Shown: piece after piece, positions 6,401-64,000 of the stretch | Layout of the letters: each line of letters starts with the position of its first letter | How positions within the stretch are numbered: position 1 is the stretch's first letter | Assembly (NCBI GenBank): GCA_037379345.1 | Contig: CM074513.1 | Location: forward strand, 34,654,885-34,718,884 | Source: Perna viridis | Taxonomy: Eukaryota | Direction: 5' to 3' | Length of the DNA stretch: 64,000 nt | Translations under genes and position numbers: made by a program | The notes under the pieces: generated by a model | The model's input: only the letters and a program-made list of their open reading frames with translations | Database searches by the model: none | Told to the model about the DNA's origin: nothing

Positions 6401-9400
6401 TGAAGATGGTACTCCAGATAATGAGGACAAAATCAAAAAGAAGAAAAAGGTTATTGTACTTCTTAAAAAGTGTGATGTAATTTTTTTCGCTTGTATCAAT
6501 AAGTGTGGTTCTTTCAGATTTCATTAGTTCAAAGAAGTTTGAAATCTATTCTTTGGAATATGAATTCATTGACCATTTAAACTTTGTGATTTGTTCCCCA
6601 ATGATAACTATATTTTATTTACAGTAGAAAATATGTTATTGTACTACCATCACTAATTGTTTTTTTTTGTGTACACATTTTGCTTCTTTACTGTTTTTGT
6701 CTAAAACTGCAATTTTCAAATAAGTGTTGAAGATTAATTATTGTTTTTTTTTGTTTATTTCAAGAAGCTATTTTGTTTGATGCTCATTGAACATGGCTTC
6801 TTCATATGATACTTATATTTGTTATGTTATTTTCTGCAAAAAAAACCCCATCTTTTATGATATAACAGTGTGACTGTGTACTCCACCATGCAGAGTTACA
6901 TGTTATTATGTGATACCCATCATTTTGATTGGCAGGTACTAGTATTTGTCCATCTGTCAGTCCTTTAGAACCCCCAGTGCTTTTCAGATGGCAACTTAAG
7001 AAAGATAAATGGATTTTTTCAAACTATGCACAATGATTCAATACAATAAATTACAGATAAAGTTTGATTGCCAGCAAAATCCCATTTGTTGTTTTCAATT
7101 TATCCAACCTTTATGAAACTGGTGAATGGGTTCATATCTAATGATGTAAGCTCCCTTTTGATTTTTATAAATTTCAGATTTTTCGTTTCCGTGTTGTAAA
7201 TTTTCATACTTAAAAAAAGGGGGATTTTCAAGTTTTCGGACAATAACTCAAAAACGCTGTCACCTACTTTTATAAAACTTTGGTGAATTGTCTACATCTA
7301 TTGACATAAGCTCCCTTTCGATTTTTATAAATTTCAGATTTATCGTTTCCATGTTAAGAATTTTTATACTTATGAAAGGGGGGATTTTTAAGTTTTTGGA
7401 CAATTACTCAAAAACACTTTCACTAACTTTTATGTAACTTTGGTGAATTGTTCATATCTATTGAAGTAAGCTAGCTTCCGATGTGTATAAATGTCAAATT
7501 TTATGTTTTCCTGTTATGAAGTTTCACTCTTTTCAAAAAGACGGAAATGGCCAAGGAAATTTATTCATTGAAAAATAGTTGAAAAAGGACCATTTGTTAT
7601 GATGATTGACAAAAAAATGTAAAAGGTACTTGGTAACCTTGTCAGAAAAGTGTGTTTTGAACAAGATAGAAATGTATGGGTGAAAAATCAAGACAACAAA
7701 CTTAGTTCAACTTCAGGTAGCCTTGGTTCTGCCAAATTTTTTGAACATTTTTTTTTTTTTGTGGGGGGAGGGTATTTGGCAGGGCTCACAGTATTTCTAG
7801 TGGATCATATAAACTCATTAAAAGCATAAGGACAAGTTAAAAGGGCAACAGGTGTATCATGAGCTTAAAACTTCTTTTTTTTTTGTCATTTCCTGATTGA
7901 TCTAAGAACAAATCAAAGGATTCTATTTAAACCTTGCACAATTTTTTGGTATTGTACTATGTATAAAACTGATTATGATTTGGGATGAACAGGGATGATT
8001 TTTTTCCGCTTTTTAGTGGAATTCCGCTACTTTAGATCCAGATTTTACTGTAATGAGTCTTTTTTTTTTAACTGTATATTTACTTCCTATTTTGCCAATT
8101 TCCGCTTGGTTTGTCAACCTCTTAAAATCATCCCTGATATAAGCATAATCCATTTTTTATTTGATCTTCAGCTGTGTTTTAAGTTATCCACCCCTCTATT
8201 TTATTATTCTGATTTTTTTTATGTGTATACTTTATTGCCCAAAAACATGGCAGAGTATTTTGATACCCGCTTCTATTGAGAGGGGAGTATACTGTTATAC
8301 CCTTGTCTTTGTTTCTGTGTTTGCGTGTGTAACAAATTTTTCTGTCAAAGTTTTCTCAGCAACTACTTATCACAATGGCTTGAAATTTTTACACATTCTT
8401 CCTGTAGGCATACCATATAGTAAGTTTTATTTTCGAAAAATAATTGAACAACAACATCCTGTTCAGCTATGACTTGGTACATTTCCCTTATATCATGGTA
8501 GAAAGAAGGGGTATTACTAGTGAGCCATAGATCACAGTTTTTGGTTTCATGTCTCATTTGATGCCTTTTTTCATGTTCAGTAATGTTAGAAAAATGTTTT
8601 CATCAATGTTAAATTCTGTTATTTCAGAAAAAGAACACAACTATAGAAACAAATTTAAAGAACATTACAACTGCTAAAGTAGACCTAGCATTTGAAGTTG
8701 ATCCAATGTTCCAGTTAATGTCTGAGGCGTTTGATGAGGGTGGAACCATGGGTTTACTTCACAATACCTTACGGTGCTATAATGACAATCAGGAGTTGGT
8801 TCTAGACTCAAGTACTGTTGTTGGTGGTAACTGTTGTGAACCTCCTCAATATAAACCTATCGATATAAGTGATTTAAAAGGTATGTTTTTTCTACATGAG
8901 AGAATTCTTTTTATACCCATCTTGACAATTTGGTGTAGATGGTGGTCCTTAGGTAACACTGTTTTTGTTTCCATTTGATATATAGACTATTCAATATAAA
9001 TGCAAGTCAAAAAAAAAAAAACAAACTAAGATTATCATTGATAACCATATCAATTTCATTTGATTTTATAATGTCCTTGAAGCTTTCCAATGTTATATGT
9101 TATATGTTAATTGTTTTCAGATTCATCTAACATAAAACATTATCTAGATGAGTTTATTTCTTGCTAACACAATCATTTACTTTTCCTCAGACATGTTCAA
9201 AGGAGTAGACATCAAAGCCAAAGAAATATGTCCATCTTTTTCTAGTTTCACTTTCATGGACTGGGATGAAAATGCAGAGGTAAAATATATTTATATGTTA
9301 TAGATATCAGATTAAGTTATGACATTATTGACAAGCATTATCACAGCTGTTTAACCAACAGGACAATATTTTATTCAAAATATATATAAGAAATGAAAAT

Positions 9401-12400
9401 TCTTGGAATTAAATAATTTTCAATCCTTCATAAAACTGATAACCTCACCACTGTGTTACTACTTGCTATAAAAAGACATAAAGAAATAAACAACAGAATT
9501 TTGTTTTGTCAGATACTCAAAATTAAGAAATGAAACTCGAAGTGTTTTTTTTTTTTTTAATACAGGATCCTTCAAACGTGTCACAAGATAATGAGGACCA
9601 TGCGTTTGATATAAATGCAGAACCAGAGCCAATACCTGAGGGAGATAATGACAATGATGATATGCCAGATATGGCTGGAGACTTCCCAGAAAATGAATAT
9701 GCTGGTATAATCATAATATTTAGTTTCAAATGTTTTATAGGATTACAATGTCTGTAGCCAGTAATGTATATCTTTTAAAAATCAAGAGAACAATATTGTT
9801 GCACATATACATGAAGTTAGTTTACCAAATATTTCTAATTGAAAGAAACAGTTCAAGATAAAGTAATGTTACGTTAAATAGGAAATGATGCTGGTCCTTA
9901 CGTCCCAGTTCCCTACAGTAGTTCAATGGTAATGTATGGACGAAATAAAAAACTGTTACAGTGTGGGAAGCCATTTTTTTCCCAACTTGCCTTTCTGGCT
10001 AGTGGAATATTGATCTTGATAGCCAAGTAGAAATTCAACTTGCCAAATTTTATATTTTAATTGATAACATATTTTTAATGTATGATGTTTAGGGATGTTT
10101 AACTAAATAATTATATAACTTGTTGGCTGGTTAATGTTCCTTGGAACTTGCCAATCAAATGATGGCCAATTGACGAGTGTAAGCTAATAATAACTCGCCA
10201 AATTACACATCTACTCGTATTTGGCGAGCTGGCAAGCGGTGGTTTCCCACACTGTGTTAAAATACATGACAATGAGTGTAATTACAGAATCTGATACAGA
10301 AGATAATCAAGGTAGTGGGGAAACAATAGGTGATGGTAAAGCAGCTGAAATGATAAATACTATGGAAAGTATCAAGTAAGTCACAATAACTTCTTCCCTT
10401 TTTCAGTGAACTAAGTTTTTTTTACGCATAAATATTAAAAAAATAAGGGCTATTTCAATAAAATGTCCATGGAGGGGATGGAATGCCACTTGAAAATTTA
10501 AACCTTGATAGGGGGTATTTCTAATGATTTACACAATTTAATGCATTGCAAAAATGAAATGAATTTACTTGGTGTTACCCCTAATGAATTGTTGCATTCC
10601 ACCCCCTTCCGGAAAATATTACTGGTATAATCCTAATTTGTTCCAATGTAAAACTTTTCTTAAATGTTTAAAAACTTGTGCTTATGTATATTTAAATGTG
10701 TAACCAATGATGATTGTTGTGATTTCTTCTGATGCAAAGTTAAAATGGAATATACTGAATTTATAAAGATATCCTTATGACAACTGACAGTTTATATAAA
10801 AGACTGCTAGTTCTACCCTGAATTTAAAAAAAATTGTTAAATACTTGGACAAATTTTCCCCCATGAAATTTTATGAAATTCTTGTTCTTTCAAGGTAAAG
10901 TTTTACCATTTTTTAATTTTTTTTTTAAATTGTATTTGATAAAAAGATACTTTCAAGTGATAATAATGATTGATAAGCCATGCAATGATACAATTCAGTC
11001 TTAAGTTTAATGATTCTTTAAAAGGAGTTATTGTCCTTTGAAAGTCTATTTTGCTGTCAGTGTACTTTTTTCTAACTTCATCAGTTTATTGCCATCAGAA
11101 GGTAAAATTTGCTGTCTTGAAAACCATACCAAAAACAAATTATTTGTGAAATGATCCTCTTGACCAGGAATATTATTTACTTAGGTTCTCCAAAAATGTG
11201 TTACAGTTTAGCAATGTTTAGATCTTCAATGCTAAGTTAAGCTATTAAAGATTTTTGAGGTCAATTTTAAATGGTCAATGTATATATTTTATAGGCATGG
11301 CACAACAGGAACTTTATTATCAGTTCTGGCATCTGAACCTTCAGATTATTCATACTTTAACAGTACCTTACTTAGAGCATGGGCTGGTCCCTCACATTGG
11401 AAAATCAAACCATTGTCAAAAGGTAAAACAGAAACCTGTTATGTAACATAGTGTCAAATTTTAATTTAATCAAACGCTCACACTCTTTAAGCACCTGAAT
11501 AAGTGCATTTTTCAAATTTTATCTGAGTAGAAACAATGTAAAACAGACATGTAGCTTTGTTGTTTTTGTGTTCTTGTGTATGAACTTGCCTTGTAAAAGG
11601 CAAAATAATGTTCAGCACAGCCTCACATTTTCATGGGGTTTTAAGCCTCTTCTGTTTCATCAGTTTTATGTCATGTTAGTGCCTAGTTATTGTCTATATG
11701 CACTATTTAAAGTAATTATTTTATACTTGGTGATTGGGTATGAGGGGAATAGTAAGTTTATTTTCTTTGAAGTACAACTATTGCTTGGGCACGAATCATA
11801 GCCAAGGGCAATAGTTGTAACCAAGGGGACAGTCAGTAAGTGTTTTATTGTACCAAAAGACAATAAACACAAATTATACCAAAGGCTAAAAGGGACAACT
11901 TGCTAGATGTCAGGAAACTAAGAACTCTATATACCTATATTGGTAATCACATATACAGTCACATTTTTTTACCTTGAGGTTAAATGTAGAAATGCAAATT
12001 GACCTGCCGACTGGGCATCATCCATATTTTTTTGTGTTGTCCGACACAAAATTTAGAATCTCTGAAAACTGCCTTGAAACTGTTGACTGGTCAATAGTCT
12101 TTTAGCCGACAACTCATCAGAACTGTTCACATAAATTTTGTAAAGAAAAAGTATACTGAGGTATAATAATTTCATATACACTAACTTGTTTTGGGTTGTA
12201 TTTCAGACAGTAGAATCAGGTCATTAGCAGAACCGGGAGCATCAAAGAAAAAATTACGAAAAGAACCATTTGAAGTGAACTATAACCAACAGATTGACTT
12301 TGATAGTTTCTTTAAGCCATCTAAATCTACAATGTTAACCAAAGCAACAATGATTAAACACAGTAAAAAGAAGAAGTCTTTACCTAAAGACTTACACTAT

Positions 12401-15400
12401 GATGCAGACAAACTGTTTAGGTTGTTTGGTAAAAGTAAAATCATGGTAAGTATTATCTAAGTTTTACAGAACTTATGCTGTATTTGTTTTTTATTGTAAA
12501 TTTTTCTAGAAAGCTAGTTTGATTTCTGCTGCTCTTTCTTAAAGTGGGGAATTAAGGTACTTACACTCTGTTAGATAGCAATCAATGTTACTATCATACA
12601 AACTCAAACACAAGACTTTAATAATTATATGTATGTTACTGTACAATGTAATAATGTTTATTTTACACTGTTTTCTTCTCCATTTTAGATAAAGAGACAG
12701 AAAAATACAAATGATAATGTGGATGTGGATGCTGAAATTGACAACTATAACTTTAACAACTCCAATGATATGGAAAATTATTGTCCTAGAGGGGATGAGG
12801 TATAAAAACTTCATTTGATGAATATTTGTCATTTACTTAAGTGTATTGAATTGGTAATAAAATTGTGGTTAATTAGCTTTTTATCAATGCCAGATTTAGT
12901 TCAAAGGTGTAGGGGCATTAAGGTATGAATATCGCCTAAAATATCAATTTTGTTGACATGACTTGAAGGTTGTTTATAACTTGGTAAAATGTATAGATAA
13001 TGGGAAAAATAATACTTTGTGGCTTTAGTTCATTGTAATGATGACATAATGAAGCCACAAGTTTACATCATTTACCAAAAATTGCTTAGAAATGTAAATT
13101 TTGTTGTTTTTGTATTTTTTCCCCAACATATTTACATCCAGGACACAACTTAATATTTTCACATATGATAAACAATGTAATAATGAATGTATTTATCATA
13201 TATGAAGTTGTTTCTTGGGTGTGGACACCTTTTTACTTCCCAAAAATATGACCAGAAAGTGACCAAAAAGTACAAAATTTGACAGAATATCTGGATATTT
13301 TTTGAACTACAAGCAATTTTTCTGGGCTATCATCACAAGAATTATCAGAAGTTTTTATGTTTTCCCATTTGTGAATGATTCAAGTCTCCAAATTCACAAT
13401 TAAAAGTATTAACATTTTTTTTTGATAAGCTGAGATGTGTTTATGTTTAAATAAATTTCTTTGTAGGCCTGTGATGATGATGATGATGAGAATGGAGACT
13501 TTGGATTTAATTTTACTGCTGATGTTGGTTCTCAGGAGACAAATGATTCACAACCAAGTGTTCTGGTGAATGATACAGCATTAGATGGCACACTACTGGG
13601 AGATAAACTGTTAGAGGTTCCTAGAAAGGTCTGTTTCTCCTTGATTTATACTTTTTAGTGAAAGAATATAACATTATCTTAATCATATTTGTAGTGTTTG
13701 AGAAAAAATAAGATAAAATGTCATCATGTTTAAAAGTATAACCATGGAAAGCAAATTTAGGTTTTATTACACGAAAGTCCTGGAAGCATAACATTTACTT
13801 TAAACTTTTTCTGTTACAAGTGCAAGAAATTATTGATAATGGAATGAATATTGTCATATTTGGTGTGTCATTCTCTGAAGAATTACTATTTAGGTAATAT
13901 ACATCTGGTGTCAATTTCACAAAAACTTATAAAAGTAAAAATGATGATAACTTACAGTGTCACAAGAAAATAGCATTGTGACATCATAACTTACAGTGTC
14001 ACAAGAAAATAGCATTGTGACATCATAACTTACAATAAATTTTACACTTACGACTTTTTGTGAAAAGGTCTGTAGCATGTACCAGCTAGACATTAGGTAC
14101 TTGAATATATAGTATTTAAGATAATTCAATAAATATTGTAATTTTTTTTAATAAAAATTTTAATTGGAATATTTGTGTTTATTTTACAGGTAGCTAAAAT
14201 AGATATAGGTTATGCAAAAACAGCAAAGAAGCTTGATGTCAAAAAACTTAAAAGAACCATTTGGGGAATCCTTACTGAATCTGAAGAGGATAAGGTAATG
14301 GTAGATAATGCTAGTGCTGGAAATAGTTTTCATTGATATGTAGAATTATACACATCCTCTAGGGTTTTACTTTCAAGATCTGATACAAGTGTAAGCTTAA
14401 GTCTACAAGTGTCAATGTTTCAAGAAATCTTTTGGAAATGAGATTTCATCCAATTTTCAACATGGATCTCCAGCATTTTCTCTGAGATACTTCGGTGAAC
14501 ATGAGAAGCCAGAATTAGCAAAAGATTATTCAGATAAACGAGACCATAATCATCCTAGTTGTTAAAAATAAAATTTCCAGCACTCAAGGTTTGAATGTTA
14601 TATATATTTAGTGAATTGCTCTTTGCTTAGGTACACACAGAAGATCTCATGTATTTAAGGAAAATATTTTTTTTTTGTTCAATTTGACTCAAAGTAGTTT
14701 TCACTTAGATTGATGAATATAGAATATTCAATTTGACAGTTCTAGTGAGTGTACACTTCATTTATGCCGTAACTTATTTGATTTGAATCATTTTACAGGA
14801 TAAGCCTGGTGCTAGTGGTGGACAGACAGATATACTAAACAAAACCATGGATAAAACTATTTACTTTACTGAACTGTTGTCAGAGTTGCCTAAGAGAGTG
14901 TCTGGACAAACTCAAGAAAATCTTAGTGTACCGATAGCCTTTGTCTGTTTACTACATTTGGCAAATGAGAAGGTAAGAATAAGGGTTGTCTGATTTTGAA
15001 GTGAATACAATAAGATTTATGAATAGAATGATTTGTAAGTATAATCAAATCCATTGTATTATATTGTATTAAGAAATCTGACAAAAATGTTAAAGAGACT
15101 TAATAGAATTTTTGATATAACTGTAGTATCAGGTACCGTCAAACTTTTATAACATTGTATTGTTTCATCTTATTTGTACTAAATAGAATTATATTCTCCT
15201 CCTATCTCAAATTTTTCTTCCAATCTTTGATTTCAACATCTGTGGGTTGCTTAAATGTTTATATAAAACTCAAATGGGTCCTGTTATTATACAAAGCCAT
15301 TTTACAATAGATACACTTTTGCTTTATACTAAATGTGTAATTTTCTTTCTTATTTTTCAGAATTTAAGGATAGAAGATAGTGAAATGAAGGACCTTATTA

Positions 15401-31110: not shown

Positions 31111-32581
31111 TGTATCACTAGTATAGATGTTGGCCCGCAGATTTCTTGCTTTTCCTGTTTTATATTTTTTAGTATGTACTATTATAGTAATCTTTGGAAT
31201 TTACACTATTTTACAGAGAATTGGTCTGATTTGTCATATTTTATTTTTAAATCTTAGTATCAAGGTAGATTAAATATTTGTATAAAAAAATGAGATATCA
31301 GAGTTTCGAATTGTAAGATAACCTCCCTCTAAAAAGTTCTCTGGTCAAGGTCACCTTCAGTTTATGCTATCAACTTAAAAAAAAGCATTAAAAAATCTAG
31401 GACTAAGATATAAAAATAGATCCTGTAGAGGGAAATAACAAATTAAATGGAAATGAAATTTACCACAGATGATACAAAGAGGCTTCAATTAAATTTCCCA
31501 ATGAGTTTTAAATTGTTTATGTCTCCCAAGAATGCATCAATACAGTCAGCTTATTATAAGGTAGTAAAGTTGTTTCTGTTATTTGTCTCAGGTCTGTAAT
31601 GTCATATTTATTGGCTTGGTCAATTGACCAGTTCAAATGATTCTTCTATCAAATCCACATAAAACAAGACATCAAACTCCAAACCAATTTTCATGTTTAC
31701 TTGAATGGCCATTACCAATAGGTTTCAAAGAGAAGAATAAATTGTGTCTAGTTGTTTGTACAAGTCTCATATTCAGTGGACTGGAATATTTTCCTGGGAA
31801 CTTAATTTAGACAATTATCCAAAATTGATGGAAAGTTCATTCCATTATTCTGCTCTGGTAAGTTACTATCTTAGTTTCATTGCGATGCTACATATAAATA
31901 TCTAATGAAGAACCCATGTTCATGACAAGGCAGGCCACACCTTTATTTCTGTTTAAATTTCCTGGCACATTTTTTGAGCGTGTTTTATTCTCTGTCTGTC
32001 TGTCAGTCTGTCTGTCTCTCTGTCTATTGTACCATGCATCCTTTAGTTGGTTATGTCTCTGGTTAAGATAAATGTTGAAGCTTTAACCCATAAATGAAAT
32101 ATCATAACAATTTGTACGCCATATGAAATTTTAAAAAAATGTAGGGTTGTGTTATTACATATTTGGTTGTGAAGGATTATAGGTCTGGTAAAACTATATT
32201 ATTGGAAGTAAAGTTTGTACGTGTCATATTCATCAATTTTTGTATTACTCGGTAGATATATCTGAAACAAAATACACATTATGTTAGAAGTCTAAAACTG
32301 TGCTAATATAGTTCAATAAAAAATAGCTTTAGTTATTATTTTAGGTCATAATGCCCATTTTTTGTAACTTAAAAACTTTTCATTGGTTTCTGTTATAAAT
32401 GTTATTTTGCCATTTATCCAGTTGAAATAGATGTATTTACACTTGTGGATGCCATGGGCGAAAATAAAATATATTCCGGTTGTTTTTGTACTGAATTCTC
32501 CTTCAACTCTAAGATCAATGACGTCACAATTAAAAATCACATTGTTTCATTGATGTCAAAAGGTTATTTGGAGACAAATCA

Positions 32582-32920
32582 CACTTTCTCACAAGTCCGA
32601 AGCTCACCTTTCTCACAAGTCCGAAGCTCACCTTTTTCACAAGTCCGAAGCGCACCTTTCTCACAAGTCTGAAGCTCACCTTTCTCACAAGTCTGAAGCT
32701 CACCTTTCTCACAAGTTCGAGCTCACCTTTCTCACAAACCAAAGCTCACCTTTTTCACAAGTCCAAAGCGCACCTTTCTCACAAGTCTGAAGCTCACCTT
32801 TCTCACAAGTCTGAAGCTCACCTTTCTCACAAGTCCGAAGCTCACCTTTCTCACAAGTCAGAAGCTCACCTTTCTCACCAGTCTGAAGCTCACCTTTCTC
32901 ACAAGTCTAAAGCTCACCAT
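32582..32920. repeat. 24-bp minisatellite, ~14 copies (cacctttctcacaagtcYgaagct)
   Basis: Direct tandem repetition. Confidence 0.95.
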
Positions 32921-34678
32921 TTTGAATCAAATGATCGTTATATCTTAAAGTGAAACAGAGTTGAAAAGCTTTTCTTGTAACATACAACTGAATTGTCAGT
33001 TTGCTTTCCTTTGAGTAAATTCAAGTGATATATATGATTTTCTCTGTTTTAAGTAACTTTTCATTAATGTAGCATATTCTAAAACATGGACTGGCCTTAA
33101 TATTAGCTTGGTCCAAACATTTTTTGCCATGAATTGGTTTCTGCCATTTTTAATGAAACCCCTTTTCACTCATTTCTTGAACAAAGTTAAGTGATTGTTT
33201 CTCAATATGACTATAATTTGTCAACATTATTACATTTTATTAGGGAAACAAAATATCATTAGAATTTAAAGTGTCAAAATATATTAGTCATACAATGCCA
33301 TTTGTGTATGGTGCTGAAAAAGCACAAACTGTAGAAGTGTTAAAACCAGTCAGTTCTCATGCAAATCACTGGTTTGTATTATTGCAAAAATATGGGTCAT
33401 AAAATTGTTATTTTGACTTGTCTGAACTTAGTGTCACCTGTAGAACCAATTTAAGCAACATCATGTTCTATATTATCAGTAAGTATCACTGTGTTTAGTG
33501 GGCACTGCAGTCAGTTAACTTAACTTACAAAAAGTAGTAACAACAGACTTACAAAAAATAGAAAAATGTTCAGGCCAAGCCAGTCTACCAAAACATCCAG
33601 GCCAGACAAATTGCTATGGCAAAATTAACTAGGACATACTAGCCTGATGAATCAAGATCATAGTTCAGAGAATGCCTGTTCACATGATTACTGAGAAAAA
33701 AATAATAAAATGAAAACATTTAAAATACATTTGTATTGAGGAGTGCATGTCTTAAATGATAGTATGTTTAACTATATTTTTTTCTTCCATTGAAAAGTTG
33801 AATTTAGTGAAGTATCTTCTGAAGTTTTAAGTACTTCAAAATTGGTTCATGCAGATTTGAAGATTGTTATTATTAGTTATTTCCCTTGAAACCAATTTAT
33901 TTTAGAAATACTTTCAACTAAATCGTTATATTTTAAGTGTTATGAGACTTAGGCATACAGAATAACCATTTACCCTTATTTCATATTTCTAAAGATATTG
34001 AGCTGTGTGCTGTTATGAATTATACAACAAGAGGAAGTCTGAATTTAAAAAAAATAATTTTCTGACATTGGACTTCAAAATCATAAAAAATTAATGAGCT
34101 TTATTTTTTGTTTTTGTTTTCTTTTTCTAAACATGTTCAGCATATTCTTATTCTATAAATGTTTCTTGATGTGTTAACAGATATAATTTATATTTGGCTA
34201 AGATTAAGACCATTTATTTATGATCACAGTGTGTCAGATACTAGTACCCTTTCAAGTACTAAAGCGTGGTCCAACGAGCAGACTTGTGAAGTTTGTAATA
34301 TTGCCTACTGTTCAGGGTTGTCTATTTGTGTTTTTACATATCTACTTCTATGTTTTGACTGGTGATAAAGAAAATGCAGTATTTATTAAAGAGTTAGGAA
34401 TTTGATCATTTTCCATTTTGGAACTCAGGTTTTGGAATGATGTGAATAACTTTTCTTTGTATGTACCTGTTTTCAAATTAGTTCATTCAGTATTAAAACA
34501 GTATTAAGGATTGGATAAAGGACTCATGATAAATCAAGCATAAATATAGCACTTAAATATGTATAGTATATGAATAGTATATTGTAATCCTCCTTGTATT
34601 GTGGTGACATTTCCAGTTGGAGGTGATACTAAATCTGACAAAGTAATCATTTAATCATTACATCATTACCATAAGTAG

Positions 34679-48289: not shown

Positions 48290-50040
48290 TATTCAGTTTA
48301 TAACTGTCAGTGCTTACAAGGTGGTTCTTCCAGTTTTTCAGGTACATGTAGTACAATTTTGTAAAACAGGTATTTTGATACCCCCATTCTATGAGTGGTG
48401 GTATATTGGAATCATTTTGTATGCCTTCCATTTCATTGCAATTTTCTTGGCTCCCAATGGATGGATTGATTAGAATGTTTTTGTGATGCTTCATATAGAT
48501 GGGGTATACTAGTATGCTGAAAGTGATATTGGTTTTTCTCTGATGTTAACTTCATGTACGAATGGGGGTATGTCTACTACGACAACACATGCAACTTTAT
48601 GCAACTTAATGTTATTATTTGGGGGAAAATTTTGAGGAATTAGAACTATTCTTTTATTCTCATTTTTATTTGTCATGATAAATTGGCACCATTAGGCATT
48701 GACTATTTTCTTCTTCAGGTGTGGGAAGGGACCTTGGCTTTTAAGAATTTTAAGAAGTTTTTATTTGGTGATCTACATTGTTTAATAATGGAAAGTAAGG
48801 CAAACACTTTTTTTCCATGGCTGAATGAAAAATAATCTTTGCTAAATATTTGTCTTAATTTTTATTCTTTTAAAAAAATTCCCAGCACCCCCTCCCTAGT
48901 AAAATGATTGGTGCATTATGTTTTAAACATGATTTTTTTTAATGCTGAAAGGCAACATCAGGTGACAAATCACATTGAGCCCAACCTCACAGGCAGATGA
49001 TACTCATCCAGATGAAATAAAAAAAATGATCTAAAGTTATACACTACAATGCTTAATTATATATTTTATATTGCTATGATTTACAAGTGAAATGTAAGCT
49101 TCATATAATGCTAATAAATATGCCACAAAAATTGTTGCCTTGCACACCTGTTCATTGGTAATGGAAAGATTGCATTTTGAATGTTGATTTACTTTCCATA
49201 TACGACCTAATATAGAAGAATGATTATAAAAAGGAAAGACACAATACAGTAATATTAAGCTTGCATGCCCCTAAATCAAAATACTTGTAGCTTTATTACA
49301 CCTCTGAACATGACCCCAGGGAATTTTAGTCTCTGCTTTTATTCAATCCCTTTAATTTACTTTTTTCATGTTAAAAATTCTGCTCAACACAAACTAGAAC
49401 AAAAGAACTTCAACATTTGAGATGTTTTCTTTTTTTCATGTTTGTTTGGATTTCAGATCATATGTACATTATGTTATCCTACAGTTTTAGTCGCTATTTT
49501 GTCAGGCGTGAAACTCCCGCCTTCATATCTCAATGATACATATTTGACAAGAAACTGAAACGTCTTCCAATGCTATTGTTACACAGACAAAGGATTCCTG
49601 ATAGTCTATCTTGTCAGTATGGTCAATTTTATGTGATTAGTTTAACCTCAGACTTTACATTGTACTATATAGTGTCGACATAAGTTCATCAGTCAGCCAC
49701 CTTACTTGTAATCTTTGGTATACAATCTGGTGTAATTTTCATAGTTTTTGTATTATAAATGTGTTTTGACTCTACCACTGATCTTTCCAAGTTATTGATT
49801 CATTACAGATTTAAGACTTTCAAAGATCCTAGTCAAGGAAAACTTAGATGGATTTCAGTAACTGTACCATAATTCACTTTTTTTTTTATATTTCTAGTTT
49901 TTAAGATGTTGGAAGGTATCAGAAAATATCATAATTCCAGTTTACAAATGAGGTTTTTTAAATGTAGATTAGGTAGAATGAACTCAGATTATAATTAAGA
50001 ATTTTGTTTCTATGGCACCGTTTCTATGAGGTAATACAAT

Positions 50041-50156
50041 TATACTTTGTCACTGTTTTTGGGAGATGTGTTACAATGTTATACTTTGTCACTGTTTTTG
50101 GGAGATGTGTTACAATGTTATACTTTGTCACTATTTTTGGGAGATGTGTTACAATG
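50041..50156. repeat. 39-bp tandem repeat, 3 copies
   Basis: tatactttgtcactgtttttgggagatgtgttacaatgt at 50041, 50080 and 50119. Confidence 0.9.
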
Positions 50157-53100
50157 ACAAAAGACTTTACCAAGCAATAATTAAGTAAAGTAAATGGAGA
50201 TTTTCATGTTGCTTCTGCTATGTAGATTATAGTTAAATTGAGGTGTAGTCTGTCAGCCATTTGTTCTCTTCCAGTGTATTAATATTTTATGGTTAAGTTA
50301 AAGATAGATTAAAAGAACTTCACTATGCTGATCTCAGTTTGAGATGTTTTTATGAAACCAACCCCAGGCCTGATTTACAGTTCGTGACACAAGTGAAAGA
50401 CTTCTTCCAAATAAGGTGTGGCTAAGTGTCCCTTAAAATAATGTCCTTTTGCTACACTGTTTCATGAATGCTCAGATAATGAAGCATGTCCTTTGTTATA
50501 ATGTGTTAAAGAGACAAGATTGATCCTGACAAAATCAGCTAGTTTGTTAATTTGACCTTTTTTAGGTTTTAGATGTGTTTGCTAGTTTGCATAGATAATT
50601 TGGTGTTGTATAATTTTCTAATCATATTGAATTAAGGTATGTAGTTTAATGTATACTTTGATGATAAATCATGTTTTTTTTTATTAAATGCTGACCTTGG
50701 CACTGTCTGCACCTGTCATTCTGTGGTAGTTAATCTTTGATCTGATTTCATTGATTACATTTTTCTACATATATGACACAGCAATTAATTCAAGGATAGA
50801 TCTTAAAACTGTGCTGTTCTTCGTCAGTAGAAACAAGATCAGTATTGTAGAGGTAGGACATGGCAGGTACCAATATGTGATTCCTGTAAAAAAATATACA
50901 TTGTCTTCTAACTTCAAATAAATCAATTCTAAGTTTGATGTTTTTATGTGTCCATGAAGATGTGCTTGTAATGGGTGTGTTTAAAAAATAATTTCTATGT
51001 GTAGAACTCCGTTCTTGTATCCCACTTTTTTAAAATACCACTCCTAATCACTTGAAGATTAAAAGCAAGTAAGAAATAGTTGTTGTCTTTTAAGTTTTCA
51101 TAGCAGGAGTGCATAACAATAGGCCTCACCTGGTCACTTCTGACAAGGTGGAACTGTGGTCCAATAAACATACTTCATACCTATAGTGTTTGCATGTACA
51201 GCAGGATACTGTTTAAGTCAGCAATATTGTAGTATCTACATAAAAAACCAAAGAAACTATTGGCACATTTGACCTTCTTATTTTGAACATTAATGCAACA
51301 ATCATGTTAAATAATTTACAACCTTTTATCCAATACCAACAGGTAAATGGTGATAATATCATTAACTTATTACTTAATAATAACTACTAGATAGTGAAAT
51401 ACTTCTGAGAAAATTCTAGGTAAAAGAATGCTATTGGTCGATTGCAATCACTCTTAATATTTATGTTATCGAAAAAGATTAAAGAAAATTAGCTAGTGAT
51501 GTGTTTGCCTTTAGCCATAGAAAAAGTGCAGTTTTGATTGGAATCATTTCAATCATCAGTGAGTAAAAGCTCTGATTATTTTATTGAAATGTACTGATCA
51601 TTTTAAATAAGTAAGGATTGTTTTGTGTCAGACTACTCATGTCAGATGTAAGAAGTGATATCCACTATGATATTTCATTTTTAGTAGACTAACAGGAAGA
51701 TCTGGGATAGATAAACATGACTTTAACCTGTTATCATATCAAAATAGGTTTTGAAAGAATTCCTCTTACCCCCATGTGTGAAAAATAGAAAAGCTTGTAG
51801 ATAGGAGTAACCTTCAGGTATTGTGGAAAGTGGCTCCAGTTTTCTAAGTGCCTAATTAATTGAATCGTTAAAACTTTCTACAATACATGTCTTGTCTGCT
51901 TGACTAATTTTTCAATTTCACATTTTCATTCATTTTTTTTTCATTTTTTAAGATTGGAATGTATAAATTAAGAAGAGAGAGAAAACAGAAGTTGAATGTG
52001 TAACAATAGTACTGTATTAGCCATGGAATCTGTAATAGGAAGATAAACATATTTATGGTATGTAGTCTAAAGTTATCTGACTGATGTTTATCGGCTCAAT
52101 TAAGTTTTGTTGACTCGTCATTTACAAAACCACAGGTAGTCACTACTTATACCTCCTAACAAATGGGTACCTTTAAAACATGACAGCTGAGCCAATGAAA
52201 ATCGTCTATGTAGTGTTAATTCTATTCCACTTGTCAACGCTTTAAGTGTAGGATATTAGCTGCCTAGGAGTACTTATTACTTTATTACTTAGCTAGAACA
52301 CATAATATTTTTACATCTTTGAAATAGATAATTGCATTTTGATTGCACTTTGCATGGATTAAGTTTTAGTGCTTTGTGAGAGGAGAAAATTTCATGCTAA
52401 TAATTTATCATTGGAGTAAGGATTATCTCAGATTGTATTGTGAACTTTACTTTTTGGATTTTGTATATTATTACTAAATAGGTAAAATAACTTTTTTTAT
52501 TTTATAGAAAAAAAGAGATGTTCACTGACAAAAGGTCTTTAGTACCGAGATGTACATAATATTTCCTTGATTTAATTTAGTGATAAACATACTTACAAAT
52601 ATACAGGAGAAAGATAAAAGCAACTGAAATCAAGAAGACATAGTTTTACATCCATGAATGTGAAAAATTTGTTTTAACTCTCTTATCAATGTAATTTATG
52701 TTTTTGTGAAAAAGTGCTTATTTTTTTTATTGCAAAAATTGTAAGGCATGCTTTGTTTTCAGGAAATTGGTGTGAAATGTTTTCCAGATTTATATATTCA
52801 TATAATATCTGTTTTTTTAATTTGTAAAACTTTTTTATTTTCATGAGCATGCAGTTACACCCTAGGCTGCATTAAAAAGTAATGATATTTTTGCTGTGTA
52901 TGCATTTCTTAAAATTTTCAAAATTCACACTGAATTAGTTAATTTTAATCCCATGTCACTGAGACCATGTAATCATTATATTTATAGTTATATATATATG
53001 ATCATAGCATACCTTATGTTTCTCATGTTGCCTCTCTATAAAGTAGGCGACTTAATGTATGTGCTGAAACATGCAAATTAAATTTCTTTGATGTGCAGTT

Positions 53101-56100: not shown

Positions 56101-56451
56101 TTACGGCCTTGTGTGACACTTAAAATATGCAAAATACCAGAATTAACAGTTCCACTAATTGTCTTCTGTTTCATCTAACAATCTTTTAGGTATTGTGTAG
56201 TTAAATGAGATTTATATCCAGTTCATAAGTTAAATATTGTGAGTCATTTGTTTATAAAAAAGAAACCTTTTGTTTATTTTTAAATTCTGGCTTGTTTAAA
56301 AAATCATACATAATTGTGTTAAGTTAAAAGTTGATTTCATAGGAGTAACAAAGTACTAATCTTGGTTGTCAGTAGAACTATGTGTAACTTTATTTAAATA
56401 TATTTGCTGTACAGTATTGATATAGTTTACATATACTGTTTTTAGGTCACC

Positions 56452-56539
56452 ATGTATGAGGAACTGCTGATCATCATCTCAATTATCTGTGTCATCCTTA
56501 CAGTTAATGTTTCATCTTACAATCATATCAAAGTACCAG
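56452..56539 (+). CDS. Signal-peptide exon (MYEELLIIISIICVILTVNVSSYNHIKVP)
   Basis: Acceptor ttttAG at 56445, ATG at 56452, donor CAG|GTAAGA; hydrophobic core followed by a VSS-Y cleavage-like site. Confidence 0.85.
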
Positions 56540-59500
56540 GTAAGAGTTGTCTTTCTTAAAACTTCGAATTATCTCCTCTAAAACTGTCTCATTTTAAGTC
56601 AGTCAAAGTTTGCATTTCATGTGAAAAAAATATCTTTGTCTCTAAAGTTTGACATTTCTATCAGTCAAAGTTGGAGTCATTTGCTTGCATATTGAAATAA
56701 ATGCAAATCATCATCCACTATCACAAAATTTGACATTTTATCTGAAAATGTATGATTGTTAAAGTTAAGTAGTAGGGTGTCATAATATGTCATATCTGAT
56801 AATCATAGATAAAAATCCTTCACACTTTGAAGAAGAACAGAGTGAAGACGCCTACTGTGGAAAGTCATTTACCTGACAAGCACACCTGTATAAATCATCA
56901 AGGGCCATCACTCTTCCATGTGATAATGATTGATAAAATGGGTACCGGTAATTTTCAAATTTAAAAATAAATTTACTCTATTTTCTCCACTAGGCTCAGG
57001 ATGTTCAGATGGATCTCAGAAAGGGTTATATGGACATGAGAAAATTGCTACATGTCAAGGTCAATGGAAAGGTCATATCAACAATTCCAGCCATCTGTGT
57101 GCTGCAGGTTGGCAAGTTTGTTCCTATCAAGACTCTGATTTACTAAGGACTATTTCATGGGAGGAGGCTATATCAGTACAGGGTTGTTATGCCATAAATG
57201 CTGCTCAAGATGGTGGCAAATGTCAGAAATGTGTGGAGGATTATGGACAGGTGTGTACTAATTGAACTGTTAAAAATACCATTACTAGCATCACCCAAAA
57301 AATATCATAACAGCTTTGCTATCTTTGATAACATACTAAGTCTATTATCAGGGCCTCTTTTGTGGTACAGTGTACAAACCTTTGTTGAATAATAATGAAA
57401 AAAAAAGTGTTACACTGCAATTTATTTTATAGTATGGAATTAATCATACAAAACATTTGACAGATTTACAATATGCTCTCTATTTGATTATATACTACTT
57501 TCCTTTTGTTATAATTTATTGGTTTATTGCTTTTAATAATATAAACTTCATACAGTAGAAAATATTTAGAAGAGATGAAAATATCCATCTGTGAGAATTT
57601 TTCCTTAAAATATTAGAATTCCAAAGAAACTGCATAGCCAAGAGTTCTAAATTAGAAAATGTTAATGGTGCATACGATTTGATGACATTTTAAAGGTATG
57701 TTTCCTATGCCCAATGCCATTAAATCTAGGGAGGACCAAGTTTATCTCTTCTAGATTTATTAGATAAAATGTGGACACTTCTTATAAAAGGGACTCTGTT
57801 TATAAGAAATATTGGACCATGTCTTTTCTCAAATATTCTGCTAAATCATGCTCAATGTAAAAAATAAACAGGAACAGTGTACTTCAAGCAAAATACCAAG
57901 GTACCCCAAACAAAGCTGAGAATTCCATAGATTTTGATCATATGTGGGCTAGAGTCTTGAGTGCTCCTGTAATGTGTTATTTTTATCTGAGGTCTGTAAG
58001 GTTCAATAGTTAAAGTCTACAAAGAATTGGTTTCTAGCTCTCAATCAAGATCAACAGCTGATTACCCATGATAATCTTGTCAACATTGTCATCGATGTGT
58101 TTTAAAATAGGTGTTAATTGTATAAACATTCAGGTAATTTTTACACCTGGAATGTGTCTTCTGTAGCAGTAATTAATTATGGAATGAGATATAAAAGTAA
58201 ATATTTGTTGGCAACACTGATAATATTGAAAACCAGGTGTAGGCATGATAATTCATACACTATTAGCACCAAGATACTTCTCATGTGCTTTGAAAGTACC
58301 ATTATATTGAAGAAAAAAAACTTTGTTAACAATTAATAGGATAACAGAAATTATGTTTTACTTGAATGTTGTTGAGAGGACTTGGGTATAGAGGAAACAT
58401 AATTAAGTGTTATGGTCAACCCTAATGTTTCTTTTGTCTCAATGACTGATAATACCCACTGGCTTTAGAATGGAATATCTGTTTCCATAAATTTGTCTGT
58501 ACTTTACACCTTCTTTTAGATGCTGGTTATAATATAATCTTTTCTATTTCGGATTTTATTAAAAGAAGATAAATATGGAAGCTCTCACTTCTTAATGTTG
58601 CATGACCAAAAATGAAGTGATATTTTACATATTCTTTTATGAATACTCAATGTAGGAATGATTTGATTTAGAAAATTAACTCTCTATGATTCAAACTTTG
58701 ACAAAAGATTTAATTGAATTGGAAAATCTGGTGGATTTCCGTTTTATGGAATGAAATAAACAGACTTCTCTTTAATGACTTATTTTTTATTTCTGATAAT
58801 GAAAATGATAACCAATTTAACAGTCATTACCTGTAAGATAAATTGTTTTTGGTCTTTACATCATATAAACATTTCTAAAGGAGAATAAGAACCTGTTTCT
58901 CAACCCATCATTCTGGGTATGTAACATTTATAGTCTATGGTCTGGTGATTAACTGTAAAAAGGACCTATATTGAATAAATGATTTTAAATATTTGGTAAA
59001 TATTAATTATAAATCTTAGTAGGATTTGTAAATTCACTTGCTGTGTGATCTGTTTAGGAACTTCAAAATGTTTTATGATGAATGCAAGGTAGAAAAGTCG
59101 TGATGGTTATCATGTAGAAATACTGAGGGCTTGGCTGATATTTAAAAGGATGATTTTACACTCATATAAGTTCTATGTAAAACGAAAGTACTGGCTATGG
59201 TAGAAAACTGGTATAAAGTTACAAAGTCAAAGACTAATTAATTCTGGCTCGGAGATTTTGGAAGTAGATATACTACTGTGAGTTTGGCTGTTAGATTTAT
59301 GACTGACAGAGAAATGTCACTGCTCATTTCCCAGTTATGCAAAGCATGTCCAAAGCAGCCAACATGGTTGTTTTTATTACAATCAGTCATTTATATTTCT
59401 GGCAGTAATTATGTGGAACTAATAGCACTGCATCATGAAGAGAGGGTATTAACATAGAGATTAACTGTACATTGTCATGTAACTTTTTTACGCTGGTTGT

Positions 59501-62500
59501 ATCGTTTAGAATAGGTTTTTGTTTAATGAATATCAAGTGTTCTTCAGAACAACAATTTTAAAATCTGCAAACAGATCTTATATATTTTGTTCAAGTTATT
59601 TCCCTTTCTTTTTAAGTGATCTATTGACCTTTTCATCATTTTATAGTCTAACAAACTAGCCAAACATATATTTATGTACCTAAAACAGTAAGACACTCTT
59701 GCAGTGAATTACAGGATGATAAACTTCTTTATTTCTGTTGTACACCTGCAGACCATTCTTTACCACAGTTAGATTCCTGAAATTGTAGTATCAATGAACA
59801 GAAAAAAAACTATGCATACCCTAACCATTGGATCCTCTTCATGAAACAGTTTCTAAATACAGGAAGTCACATTACCTCATTAACTTTAACAACCTCACAT
59901 GCATTTTCTACCATAAAGAACTATTAATTGACCCCATCTCCTTCGTAATGTCTGTTTTCACCTTTGTTATATTATTAATGCTGCTCTCAAATTGCACCTG
60001 ATCTATCATCAAGAATTATGATAGTTACTGAACAAATACTGAGTTCATTGCATACATTTGTTTGGCCTGACACTTTAATATTGAAAGAAAAGATTAAAAT
60101 CTCTCACAATATAATTAAATTTTTTTTCGTTTTATTTGGCTATAGATGTTTGCAATGTTGTCTTTTTTTTTCAGTCTTCTCTTTTTTAGGACAGGTGTAT
60201 GTAGAGACTGTTGGAACTGATCATTGATATCCTATCAATTCTTTTCTTTGTTTTACAGGATGATATGGCAGGTATAGGGCGGGGTTGTCCTCATCAGAAC
60301 TTTGGGCAGACGTCATGTATTCGTGGAGGAAGAATTGACTCCAGTTGTTGTGTGGATTCACATTTCAATCAAGCCTGCCATTTTAAGCCTAATATCAATG
60401 GTGTTGTGTGCTGTAAGATGGCAAGTAAGTTGCTTAATCAGGGCTGCCCATGTAAATGGTAGACATGGCAACATTCAAATCCTCTGTTATCATTATGTTA
60501 GTGCCAATATAAATTGACTGTGGAAAACCAAGTAAAGGGGTTAAGTTTAAGTTCATGAAAATATTATTATTACATTTTCTATCTTAACTTTCAGAACACT
60601 GGTTCTTAGACTTCCGAACTATTCAAACTGTTTGCTCTCCACATGATTTTAGGACAGTTTTAAAATTTCTTTTTGTCATTTTGTCTTATTTATCCCCTAA
60701 CAATACATAACCATTGCATGGTAAATTTGATAATTCTATGTAATTTGTCAACTCAAATTGACCAAGACTGATTCAGAAATTTTCCCATTGATTTTTTAGA
60801 ATTACAAGTATAAATCTTTTGTTAAGGATCATGTTAAGTGAAGTTGACCATAAATTCTCAATACATAAAATATTAGTCAAGATGATATTTACCTGGTGTT
60901 AAACAAATGCCTGGTAAACAGAGACGATGTACTGAAGGGAAGGATAATGAATTATGATCCTTTGTCATTAAATATTTTGTTTTCTGATTAACATCTAACA
61001 TTACAAAGTTGTGGAAATCAGATTAAAGTTACATAGACAACCAAATGTTGAAATTTCTACTTTATTAGGCGTCAACTTTATTAGTTTCTTACTTATTCAG
61101 GCCATCAATTGGTGACAAAAACATGCCTTGGTTGACCATGAATCTATAATTTAGAATTCATCGTCATTGTAGGTGTTTAAACCATTCCTTTGTTTTATAA
61201 TTTCATGGGATAATTTAAATAGTTCTTGTTTACTGTCAGTTTACCAGTACTACTGTCAATGTGAGATAGCCATTTTTAAGAGACAAAAAAAATATGCATC
61301 AATTGCCGCAGTGATTACTCTACTGGTAAAAGAAAATAAGAATTTGGCAGTAACTTGGTGTATTTCTTTGCCATAACACCATGTAGTTTCATATGATATG
61401 TTTATATTAATCTTGAGTAATTAACAAGAGTTGACTAACTATAGATTAAAATGATGTTTGATCTCCCAAGTAATTAGAATCATCATTAGTTGTTTTTTCT
61501 GTCTGCACTGTAGCTCTACATTTATCTGTCTGGTAATTTTTTTTTACTCCACCAGACATCTAGAAAGTGATTTTTATCATTCTACCTATCAATACTTTGT
61601 TACTATTTAGAGCAAATTGTAGGATAAACTTTAAAGAACATGATCATAACATCTTATATGTCTTACACCATGATTATGTATAGTCTGAAACATTAAGCTG
61701 AGAAAAGGCATGAAGTAAGCCAGCCATTATAAACTGTAGTGTTAGTTGCTGAAAAAAGGCATGAAGTAAGTCAGCCATTATAAACGGTAGTGTTAGTTAT
61801 ATAATGGTTCAAATTGATTGATTTTTAAAAAATATTTTTGGCACATAACTGCACTTAGGCTCAAGTCCCTTCTTGTAGGTCACTTAAGAGCATTAATGAA
61901 CTAACTGCATAATAGTGGTGTTGAGGCATACAGAGACAGATTAGTAGCACATTCAGACATCATTTTTGCATAAAAACCAGAAGCGGAATATTAAAAGTGG
62001 TAGAATTTATAGAGGAAATGATTTTTTAATTATTTGCATAGCCAGTGTATTGTTTCTCAACCAAAATAAAATTTGATGTTTCATCAGTTTGAAAATATTT
62101 TTATCAACCTAAAAGCAAAAGGATGTAATCAATGAACAGCTTTGAAATATTGATGTCAGTTTCAATAACTGTTATATTCATTCATATGATGTGTAGTGTA
62201 TGTTTAAGACAGATTTAAGTAATATTTATGGAGACATGAACTTTCATATATATTGCATACAAGGATTTATCTTAGTGAGATATTGCTGTGAGAATTGATA
62301 TTTTGGGTAATATTAATTTTGCATTCATCAGGAAAGATTAAGTGATTCTTCAAGAAAGTTTTTTTTCTTGGTGTAAAAATGATATTATGGGTATTTTTAG
62401 TATCACCTTCTTCTTAGAGTTACAAAACACCTTTGGAAACCAAGGCTACCAGAAGTATGAATGGTTGTTTATACGGGGTTCAGTCATTAGCAGCAATGTG

Positions 62501-63754
62501 ATAATTGGACAAGGCTGTATGTGGTCTGACTAAATTCCACATTCCAACATTATGTGACGATAGAACCTAATGTCCTGACAAATCTACTATAATCTGTAGT
62601 AAATCATACTGACCAGGACCTATTAATCTTACCCAATTAATACAATTATCATCAGAAAACCTTTCATTATACACCACTAAACTGCTGTAAATCTTAATTG
62701 TAGAGGGCTTGATAAGACAGGGCTATTGATTTGATACAGTACCAGTTGTTAGAAATCTAATTAAATTGTCCAAACCTTGCTACTAAATCCTTGCGTATCT
62801 ATAGGCAACAGTAAACTCTAGAAGTTTTGTTTTAAAGTACTTTTTTATATCATGTTACAGCCTTGCAACATATTTAGTAGGATATTTGGCATAGATTATA
62901 ATATCAAATTGTAAATCACCAGTAAAAAATTAAATTTATTTAAGAGATCTCTGTGTTAATAGATAAGTAAGAATGTTTGTAAGTGTTAGTATCAGTAAAT
63001 CTTCTTGATGTGTTTCCTATGCTCATCTGTTCCGTTTTTCAGGGGTTTTCTTTGACTCATTGACCTAGTTTTATATTGAATCCTTATTTTACTTACCAGT
63101 ATTGAACTTGCAATATTACTGGGAAAATAACGTACAATTTTGGGTTTTCCTAAAAATTCCAGATTACCTTACAGGATTTTTTTCTTATACAATCCTTGCA
63201 TTGAAATAAATTCACAGAGCTTACCTTTCTACAAATAAAAAAGATAATTTTAGGTGTTGTTTCTCCCCTTTTATATTAAAGTTCTATTTAGTAGTATATG
63301 TTTTGTCTTGAGCATGTTTTTTTTCCTCAACTGAAAATTGTAACAGTAGGAAGATTCCATATAATCAAGGTAAATGTTGTATGCTGTATTTGTGTTAGCA
63401 CTGAATCACTGATCATTAAAATGCCATAATATAAACCTAGTTTATTTTCATAAATATTATCTCTTCATTTCGAATGTCACAGTGCAGAAAAGTTATAATA
63501 TATGGTATCTTAATTTGTTTCAAATACTTGTTTAAATTTTCTGATTTTAATCTTCCATCTCATGTTAATAATATCTATTGCAGCAAGAAAGCCCAAAATA
63601 GTGGTAAAGCCCAAGGAGAGAATTGAAGTGAACACAGGTTTGATTTTCCTGTTGACTTGTCAAGCTACTGGTTCCCCAATACCTAGAATCCAATGGTATA
63701 AGGATGGTACACAAATATCTAAATCAAATACCAGGATACAAACTCTTCCTTCTG
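56452..63754 (+). CDS. Secreted or cell-surface protein with signal peptide, unassigned 14-Cys module and I-set Ig domain; 3'-partial: join(56452..56539,56994..57250,60259..60424,63584..63754)
   Basis: Four GT-AG exons join in frame (intron phases 1, 0, 1, 1). Kozak-like gtcaccATG, hydrophobic leader, Cys-rich module, then Ig strands (LTCQATGSPIPRIQWYKDG). Confidence 0.88.
56994..57250 (+). CDS. Cys-rich module, first exon (GSGCSDGSQKGLYGHEKIATCQGQWKGH...LCAAGWQVC...CQKCVEDYGQ)
   Basis: ccactAG / CAG|GTGTGT; open frame with 7 Cys and 3 Trp. Confidence 0.9.
60259..60424 (+). CDS. Cys-rich module, second exon (DDMAGIGRGCPHQNFGQTSCIRGGRIDSSCCVDSHFNQACHFKPNINGVVCCKMA)
   Basis: tttacAG / GTAAGT; phase 0 in, phase 1 out; 7 Cys. 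Confidence 0.9.
61698..61798. repeat. ~50-bp tandem duplication
   Basis: gctgaRaaaaggcatgaagtaagYcagccattataaacKgtagtgttagtt occurs twice. Confidence 0.85.
63584..63754 (+). CDS. N-terminal half of an I-set immunoglobulin domain (TRKPKIVVKPKERIEVNTGLIFLLTCQATGSPIPRIQWYKDGTQISKSNTRIQTLPS)
   Basis: tgcAG / GTAAGT; canonical I-set pattern P.I..P......G....L.C.A.G.P.P.I.W.KDG. Confidence 0.9.
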
Positions 63755-64000
63755 GTAAGTTAAATATTCTTCACTGCTCTAATCTGTAAATTATTTCGTT
63801 GAAAAGCATTTTTCATAGAGAAGACTGTCATAATTTTTAGTTTTCTAAACAAAAAATTTTTTTGAATATTGAAATATTTCTATATTATCTTTAAATGTTG
63901 TACAACTGTCGGAAGAAATGATATCCCAGGGTAGATGTTAAGACTTTAATCATTTGAACATATGACACATTTGTAAATTTCTTAAGTTAGTTTTCTTTTT

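Follow-up and report, generated by a model that had tools for sequence, protein, structure and literature searches.

An unnamed cysteine-rich domain family in a conserved bivalve gene, with a predicted and highly divergent C-type-lectin-like fold

A gene that begins in the 64,000-nucleotide stretch of Perna viridis DNA analysed here (the window) is real, expressed and conserved, and it carries an undescribed domain family that is new as a family and not as a kind of system. Our best explanation is that this domain, hereafter the module, belongs to an unnamed disulfide-rich family with a predicted divergent C-type-lectin-like fold and likely serves as a surface-recognition head in secreted proteins of animals, amoebae, and myxobacteria. 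We lean toward this explanation modestly, and the leaning applies to the family, the fold, the ligand sites, a bivalent cross-linking role, and an ancestral origin taken jointly.

The gene lies on the + strand. Loose RNA ends before position 56443 match the window from 52449 and place an upstream non-coding exon there (52449..52481, mapped at its 3′ end only and followed by a GT donor). The first coding exon (56446..56539) supplies an ATG at 56452, a hydrophobic leader that by eye is likely a signal peptide, and a phase-1 donor after 56539. From the letters alone, the first-pass annotation had read two exons encoding about 140 residues with 14 Cys, set between a signal peptide and an I-set immunoglobulin (Ig) domain and bounded by phase-1 introns on both sides, and this observation is confirmed. 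Module 1 spans 139 residues with 14 Cys (protein residues 31-169) and is encoded by exon A (56994..57250; phase 1 in, phase 0 out; 7 Cys) and exon B (60259..60424; 7 Cys; phase-1 donor), which have AG/GT borders and join in phase 0. Exon A, as assigned from the model, encodes the strand-helix-strand-helix half with N68 and D72, and exon B carries D86/D87, D112, an extra Cys115-Cys116 pair, and the terminal G-x-x-C-C strand. The first exon of the Ig domain follows at 63584..63754 (Pfam Ig_3, E 2e-11; I-set, E 4e-9), and the next intron (63755..64000) leaves the window, with the gene continuing in neighbouring locus L003. The three introns within the window have GT..AG joints, all present in assembled contigs of two runs (X4 and X11). 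The first two are additionally crossed by raw RNA reads, and for the third 8 raw reads link the same exon pair with two differing letters at the junction. In the bins up to 60043 that lie wholly within introns, RNA coverage is nil. Reads of run X20 depart from the genome at 57151 (T>A in 4/4 reads) and at 60423-60424 (two differing letters, 8 reads), differences that are probably alleles. The intron between module 1 and the Ig exon contains a unit of ~50 bases in two head-to-tail copies (about 61698-61799). Elsewhere in the window, ordinary exons of a gene for condensin complex subunit 2 (Cnd2/CAP-H; Pfam PF05786, E 2e-15 and 7e-11) lie upstream on the + strand at about 8613-14990, and tandem minisatellite arrays at 32534-32950 and 50030-50185 yield repetitive open frames.

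The rest of the gene was followed into the neighbouring DNA, where base 1 of L003 is window position 63117. A downstream repeat of the module, which the annotation had proposed looking for, begins 284 bases beyond the window end. On the + strand of L003 the second Ig exon (899-1006) is followed by the two exons of module 2 (1168-1408 and 1713-1903), which has 12 Cys, a net charge of +15, and phase-1 introns on its outer sides. Three EGF repeats come next (2962-3072 and 3313-3501), then a short last coding exon (from 3881); the six introns past the window are each backed by raw reads and contigs. In order, the protein has the leader, module 1, the Ig domain, module 2, three EGF repeats, and a tail. 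The product is likely secreted, and no membrane segment is evident downstream of the leader. A chance or pseudo-exon reading of the module is ruled out because the spliced 520-residue protein is identical at 435 of 520 positions to an uncharacterised Mytilus edulis protein, P0001. The two modules share 53 identical residues, and their internal introns differ in place and phase. The module had been suggested as possibly mobile, but we see no promiscuous shuffling, since a genome search found only two copies (a lower bound), both in this gene, and bilaterian orthologues keep one architecture. The intron between module 2 and the first EGF exon holds a very high-copy repeat (L003:1966-2700; thousands of reads on both strands, many variant letters) that looks like a SINE-type element, and a similar stretch occurs reversed in L008 at about 6995-7525.

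The module has no name in the collections searched, as had been suggested. Pfam returned 0 families for both module 1 exons and 0 relevant families for 28 module sequences, with no match at E<=10 to Lectin_C, Xlink, Lcl_C, InvE_AD, or DUF7495. NCBIfam holds no model of the module, and its few matches fell on members submitted as whole proteins. Sequence searches of the PDB with the module gave nothing significant, and a Foldseek structure comparison with PDB and viral models found nothing at E<=1e-3. The openly available main texts searched contained no description of the domain and nothing on DUF7495 or seven orthologue identifiers; supplementary proteome tables may list orthologues. A 'hemicentin-1-like' oyster gene in PMC13070813 could not be linked to this one. 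We rejected the automatic names of the orthologues ('hemicentin-1-like', 'Notch-like', 'VWDE', 'Titin', 'adhesive plaque matrix protein 2-like', and 'Tenascin') as uninformative on the module, and the orthologues resemble the proteins so named only in having Ig and/or EGF repeats. In contrast to hemicentin, VWDE, and Notch, the orthologues are about 500-560 residues long, and Pfam scans reveal neither vWA nor VWD nor Notch domains in them; the 520-residue product described here has one Ig and three EGF repeats instead of long arrays.

Structure prediction was more informative for the single module than for the whole protein, for which a model of a 520-residue orthologue from a 3-row alignment had a pLDDT of 39. 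The module model runs strand, helix, strand, helix, and closing C-terminal strand. Its nearest solved folds are the C-type-lectin-like domains of KLRG1 (3ff8), PLA2R (CTLD7, 6jli), and CLEC5A (2yhf), and nearly all of the neighbours listed from among 48,161 chains have one fold, mostly matched over the whole model. We read the module as, most likely, a recognition domain of the C-type-lectin-like kind that has diverged very far. The annotation's remark that it is not a canonical C-type lectin stands for the sequence, but the predicted fold is closest to that group. Likeness to the C-type lectin-like domain (Lectin_C, PF00059) lies in the predicted order of strands and helices with the closing C-terminal strand, the extracellular setting, and the disulfide bonding. 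In the model, invariant C35 at the end of helix 1 and C136/C137 in the last strand take the positions expected for the disulfide that joins these elements in C-type-lectin-like domains. The differences are the missing Pfam match and the absence, from a 96-row module alignment, of the WIGL core and of the Ca2+ site-2 motifs EPN/QPD and WND, in place of which stand other conserved acidic residues. Link modules (Xlink, PF00193; TSG-6, LYVE-1, aggrecan G1) have about 95 residues and 4 Cys, whereas the module has 12-14 Cys and no Xlink match, and hhalign gave 0.3% against 10 partial Link-like exons (a shallow alignment with one row in the wrong frame). This bivalve genome also holds twelve Link-module-like (Xlink) matches (L047-L056), most of them a family of their own. 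Language-model (Atlas) neighbours of the module, with scores of 0.77-0.84, were Lcl_C (PF07603) and InvE_AD (PF05689) at 0.77-0.78, the invasin tip, and, as the best named lead at 0.84, diatom DUF7495 (PF24325). The bacterial lectin-fold tips resemble the module as terminal heads on surface proteins, the role that such a tip plays in invasin, but these domains and DUF7495 have another Cys pattern and no Pfam match among the 28 module sequences. An hhalign comparison with 11 Lcl_C rows gave 0.1%, a weak test given that the Lcl_C versus Lectin_C control reached only 2.2%, and a scan for DUF7495 members found them in 0/151 genomes with controls likewise silent.

Candidate binding sites emerge from residue statistics over 302 domain matches, 234 full-length and 209 both full-length and unique. 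Twelve Cys are nearly invariant in the 209 domains. Of these domains, 80 have both Cys115 and Cys116, 126 have neither, and 3 have just one; because the other twelve Cys persist without the pair, a bond between the two is the simplest reading, though a reshuffled pairing may occur. Vicinal disulfides can bind ligand rings, and one contacts arabinofuranose, according to PMC12102755. Animal module 1 and the non-animal domains alike conserve N or D at position 68 together with D72, D87, and D112, and animal module 2 has other residues, often Arg or Lys, in place of D72 and D87. Averaged across 38 two-module orthologues, net charge is -2 in module 1 and +10 in module 2. The conservation suggests that N68, D72, D86/87, and D112 form one site that may bind Ca2+ or sugar, and the charge suggests that module 2 binds glycosaminoglycans. 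In general the module likely binds sugars or other cell-surface molecules. In the mechanism we propose, module 1 would retain this ancestral site together with the Cys115-Cys116 pair (likely a vicinal disulfide), and its ligand would be a glycan, perhaps bound along with Ca2+. Strongly basic module 2, having lost D72/D87, would work with a Lys/Arg linker to grip sulfated glycosaminoglycans or other polyanions. The whole protein would then act outside the cell as a bivalent cross-linker, with the matrix at one end and, tethered to it at the other, a cell, microbe, or protein that bears glycans.

Rather unlikely, in our judgement, is that the lectin-like fold binds protein, in the manner of NK-receptor, invasin-type, and thrombomodulin domains, and that the animal protein is a secreted modulator of signalling ligands on heparan sulfate, with basic module 2 and the EGF tail as its possible anchor. 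WIF-1/Shifted, a secreted signalling-ligand modulator held on heparan sulfate, is a loose analogue. The top structural neighbours are mostly Ca-independent protein binders (KLRG1, NKR-P1, LLT1, and CLEC-2), the canonical sugar motifs are missing, and a gene that is single-copy and highly conserved looks more like one with a developmental role than like an immune lectin in expansion, with 2 module copies in the genome versus at least 151 Lectin_C matches. However, the acidic residues are kept in bacteria and amoebae, where an animal signalling ligand does not exist. It is less probable still that the module is a small disulfide-stapled alpha/beta domain with a fold of its own, that its likeness to C-type lectins reflects a common arrangement, and that its role is structural or one of metal-ion binding. 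Against this speak the single fold of nearly all listed neighbours, the language-model leads to the same C-type-lectin-like group, and a terminal position on long stalks that suggests recognition.

The distribution of the module bears on both its role and its origin. A word search found 43 proteins of 289-921 residues. Nearly all contain Ig and EGF domains, and those that carry a name belong to molluscs, annelids, and echinoderms. Searching 1.84 billion representatives with a profile yielded 303 matches at E<=1e-3 (197 at E<=1e-10), of which the best 150 were listed. Thirty matches were looked up, and those with names are the animals Acanthaster, Strigamia, Priapulus, Styela, Ciona, Saccoglossus, Soboliphyme (partial), and the sponges Sycon and Oscarella, as well as the amoeba Balamuthia and a Gymnodinium transcriptome entry. 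Further named holders are Ptychodera, Patiria, Asterias, and a Myxococcaceae protein. Vertebrates, insects, and cnidarians are missing from the named matches, which is not proof of absence. The label 'invertebrate domain' was too narrow because Amoebozoa, other eukaryote-like proteins, and bacteria also carry the module. Sponge proteins are laid out as module-module, module-module-EGF, or module-EGF, and amoebal ones as module, Cys-rich stalk, and membrane anchor. One Saccoglossus database model (P0054/P0214) joins a DEAD-box helicase part to an Ig-module-EGF part and is probably a gene-prediction chimera.

In bacteria, the suggested resemblance to myxobacterial proteins is borne out by actual homologues, 32-47% identical to the Mytilus module. 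They occur in 14/401 genomes of the phylum of a Myxococcota MAG, in 17/301 genomes (2 weak) of the phylum of an 'uncultured delta proteobacterium', and in 0/301 of the phylum of Promicromonospora, all lower bounds because only 10-13 candidates per genome were scored. There was no match in 72,556 plasmids, 50,697 phages, and 3 further genomes. A pattern scan of named genomes for the domain gave 78 stretches, 0 confirmed, and 15 loci from a scan with P0133 were discarded, since their matches were confined to its low-complexity N-terminal part and the domain was in none of them. Bacterial loci with the module are intron-free with a G+C of 0.60-0.74. Partner domains in 75 matches scanned include MopE, TSP3, DUF4215, Dicty_CTDC, LamG, and WD40. 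The module lies within 12 residues of the C-terminus in 56/67 bacterial-looking representatives (a label inferred from partner domains and composition) and in 10/10 loci examined from the delta-proteobacterium-phylum set, and it often caps long Cys-rich repeat stalks. Giant bacterial open reading frames of up to 3,554 residues (L089-L098, e.g. L092 and L094), with Cys-rich repeats capped by the module, look like uncharacterised stalked adhesins.

Two trees were built. FastTree, with 117 rows (61 named or eukaryote-like and 56 of 88 bacterial-looking after removal of those >62% identical; close animal orthologues excluded), placed animals apart from a main bacteria-plus-amoebae group. IQ-TREE, with 65 hand-picked rows and 145 columns under plain LG+G4, with no mixture model (bootstrap support had not fully converged; several animal labels inferred), put all 26 animal-labelled rows, sponges to tunicates, on one side of a branch at 85/95, with the remainder lacking resolution. 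This grouping makes it likely that the domain was present in the animal ancestor. The patchy bacterial spread makes transfer between eukaryotes and bacteria likely. A constraint tree joining animals and amoebae was not rejected (p-AU 0.51), so eukaryote-to-bacteria transfer or shared ancestry may apply, and the direction could be either way. A recent transfer from myxobacteria into an invertebrate lineage followed by exon shuffling, the horizontal acquisition that had been raised, would suit the bacterial homologues, the phase-1 boundaries, and the taxa missing from the named matches, but it is very improbable, since the branch keeps the 26 animal rows together and the holders range over two classes of sponges, a priapulid, a myriapod, a nematode (partial match), deuterostomes, and tunicates; a recent mollusc-specific version is rejected.

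Our favoured explanation, a recognition head of ancestral origin, can be sharpened into a more tentative proposal, a possibility that falls short of probable. The module would form a new C-type-lectin-like branch whose glycan binding depends on a vicinal Cys-Cys disulfide together with a novel acidic (Ca2+) site. Its holders would be the tips of myxobacterial adhesins, surface receptors of amoebae, and one secreted animal protein, single-copy, that predates sponge divergence and was lost in vertebrates, and ancient gene transfer would have carried the module between early eukaryotes and Myxococcota. What is defined here is a sharply bounded extracellular domain family without a name in the Pfam, NCBIfam, and PDB copies searched, within an animal gene, ancient and strongly conserved, whose database labels of hemicentin, Notch, or VWDE are wrong. 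The domain is small and confidently folding, and its natural variants either carry or lack the Cys-Cys pair and the acidic site, which makes it easy to test. If the lectin-like reading is true, the family would represent recognition chemistry outside the EPN/QPD rule and a testable case of an extracellular module common to Myxococcota, early-branching animals, and amoebae.
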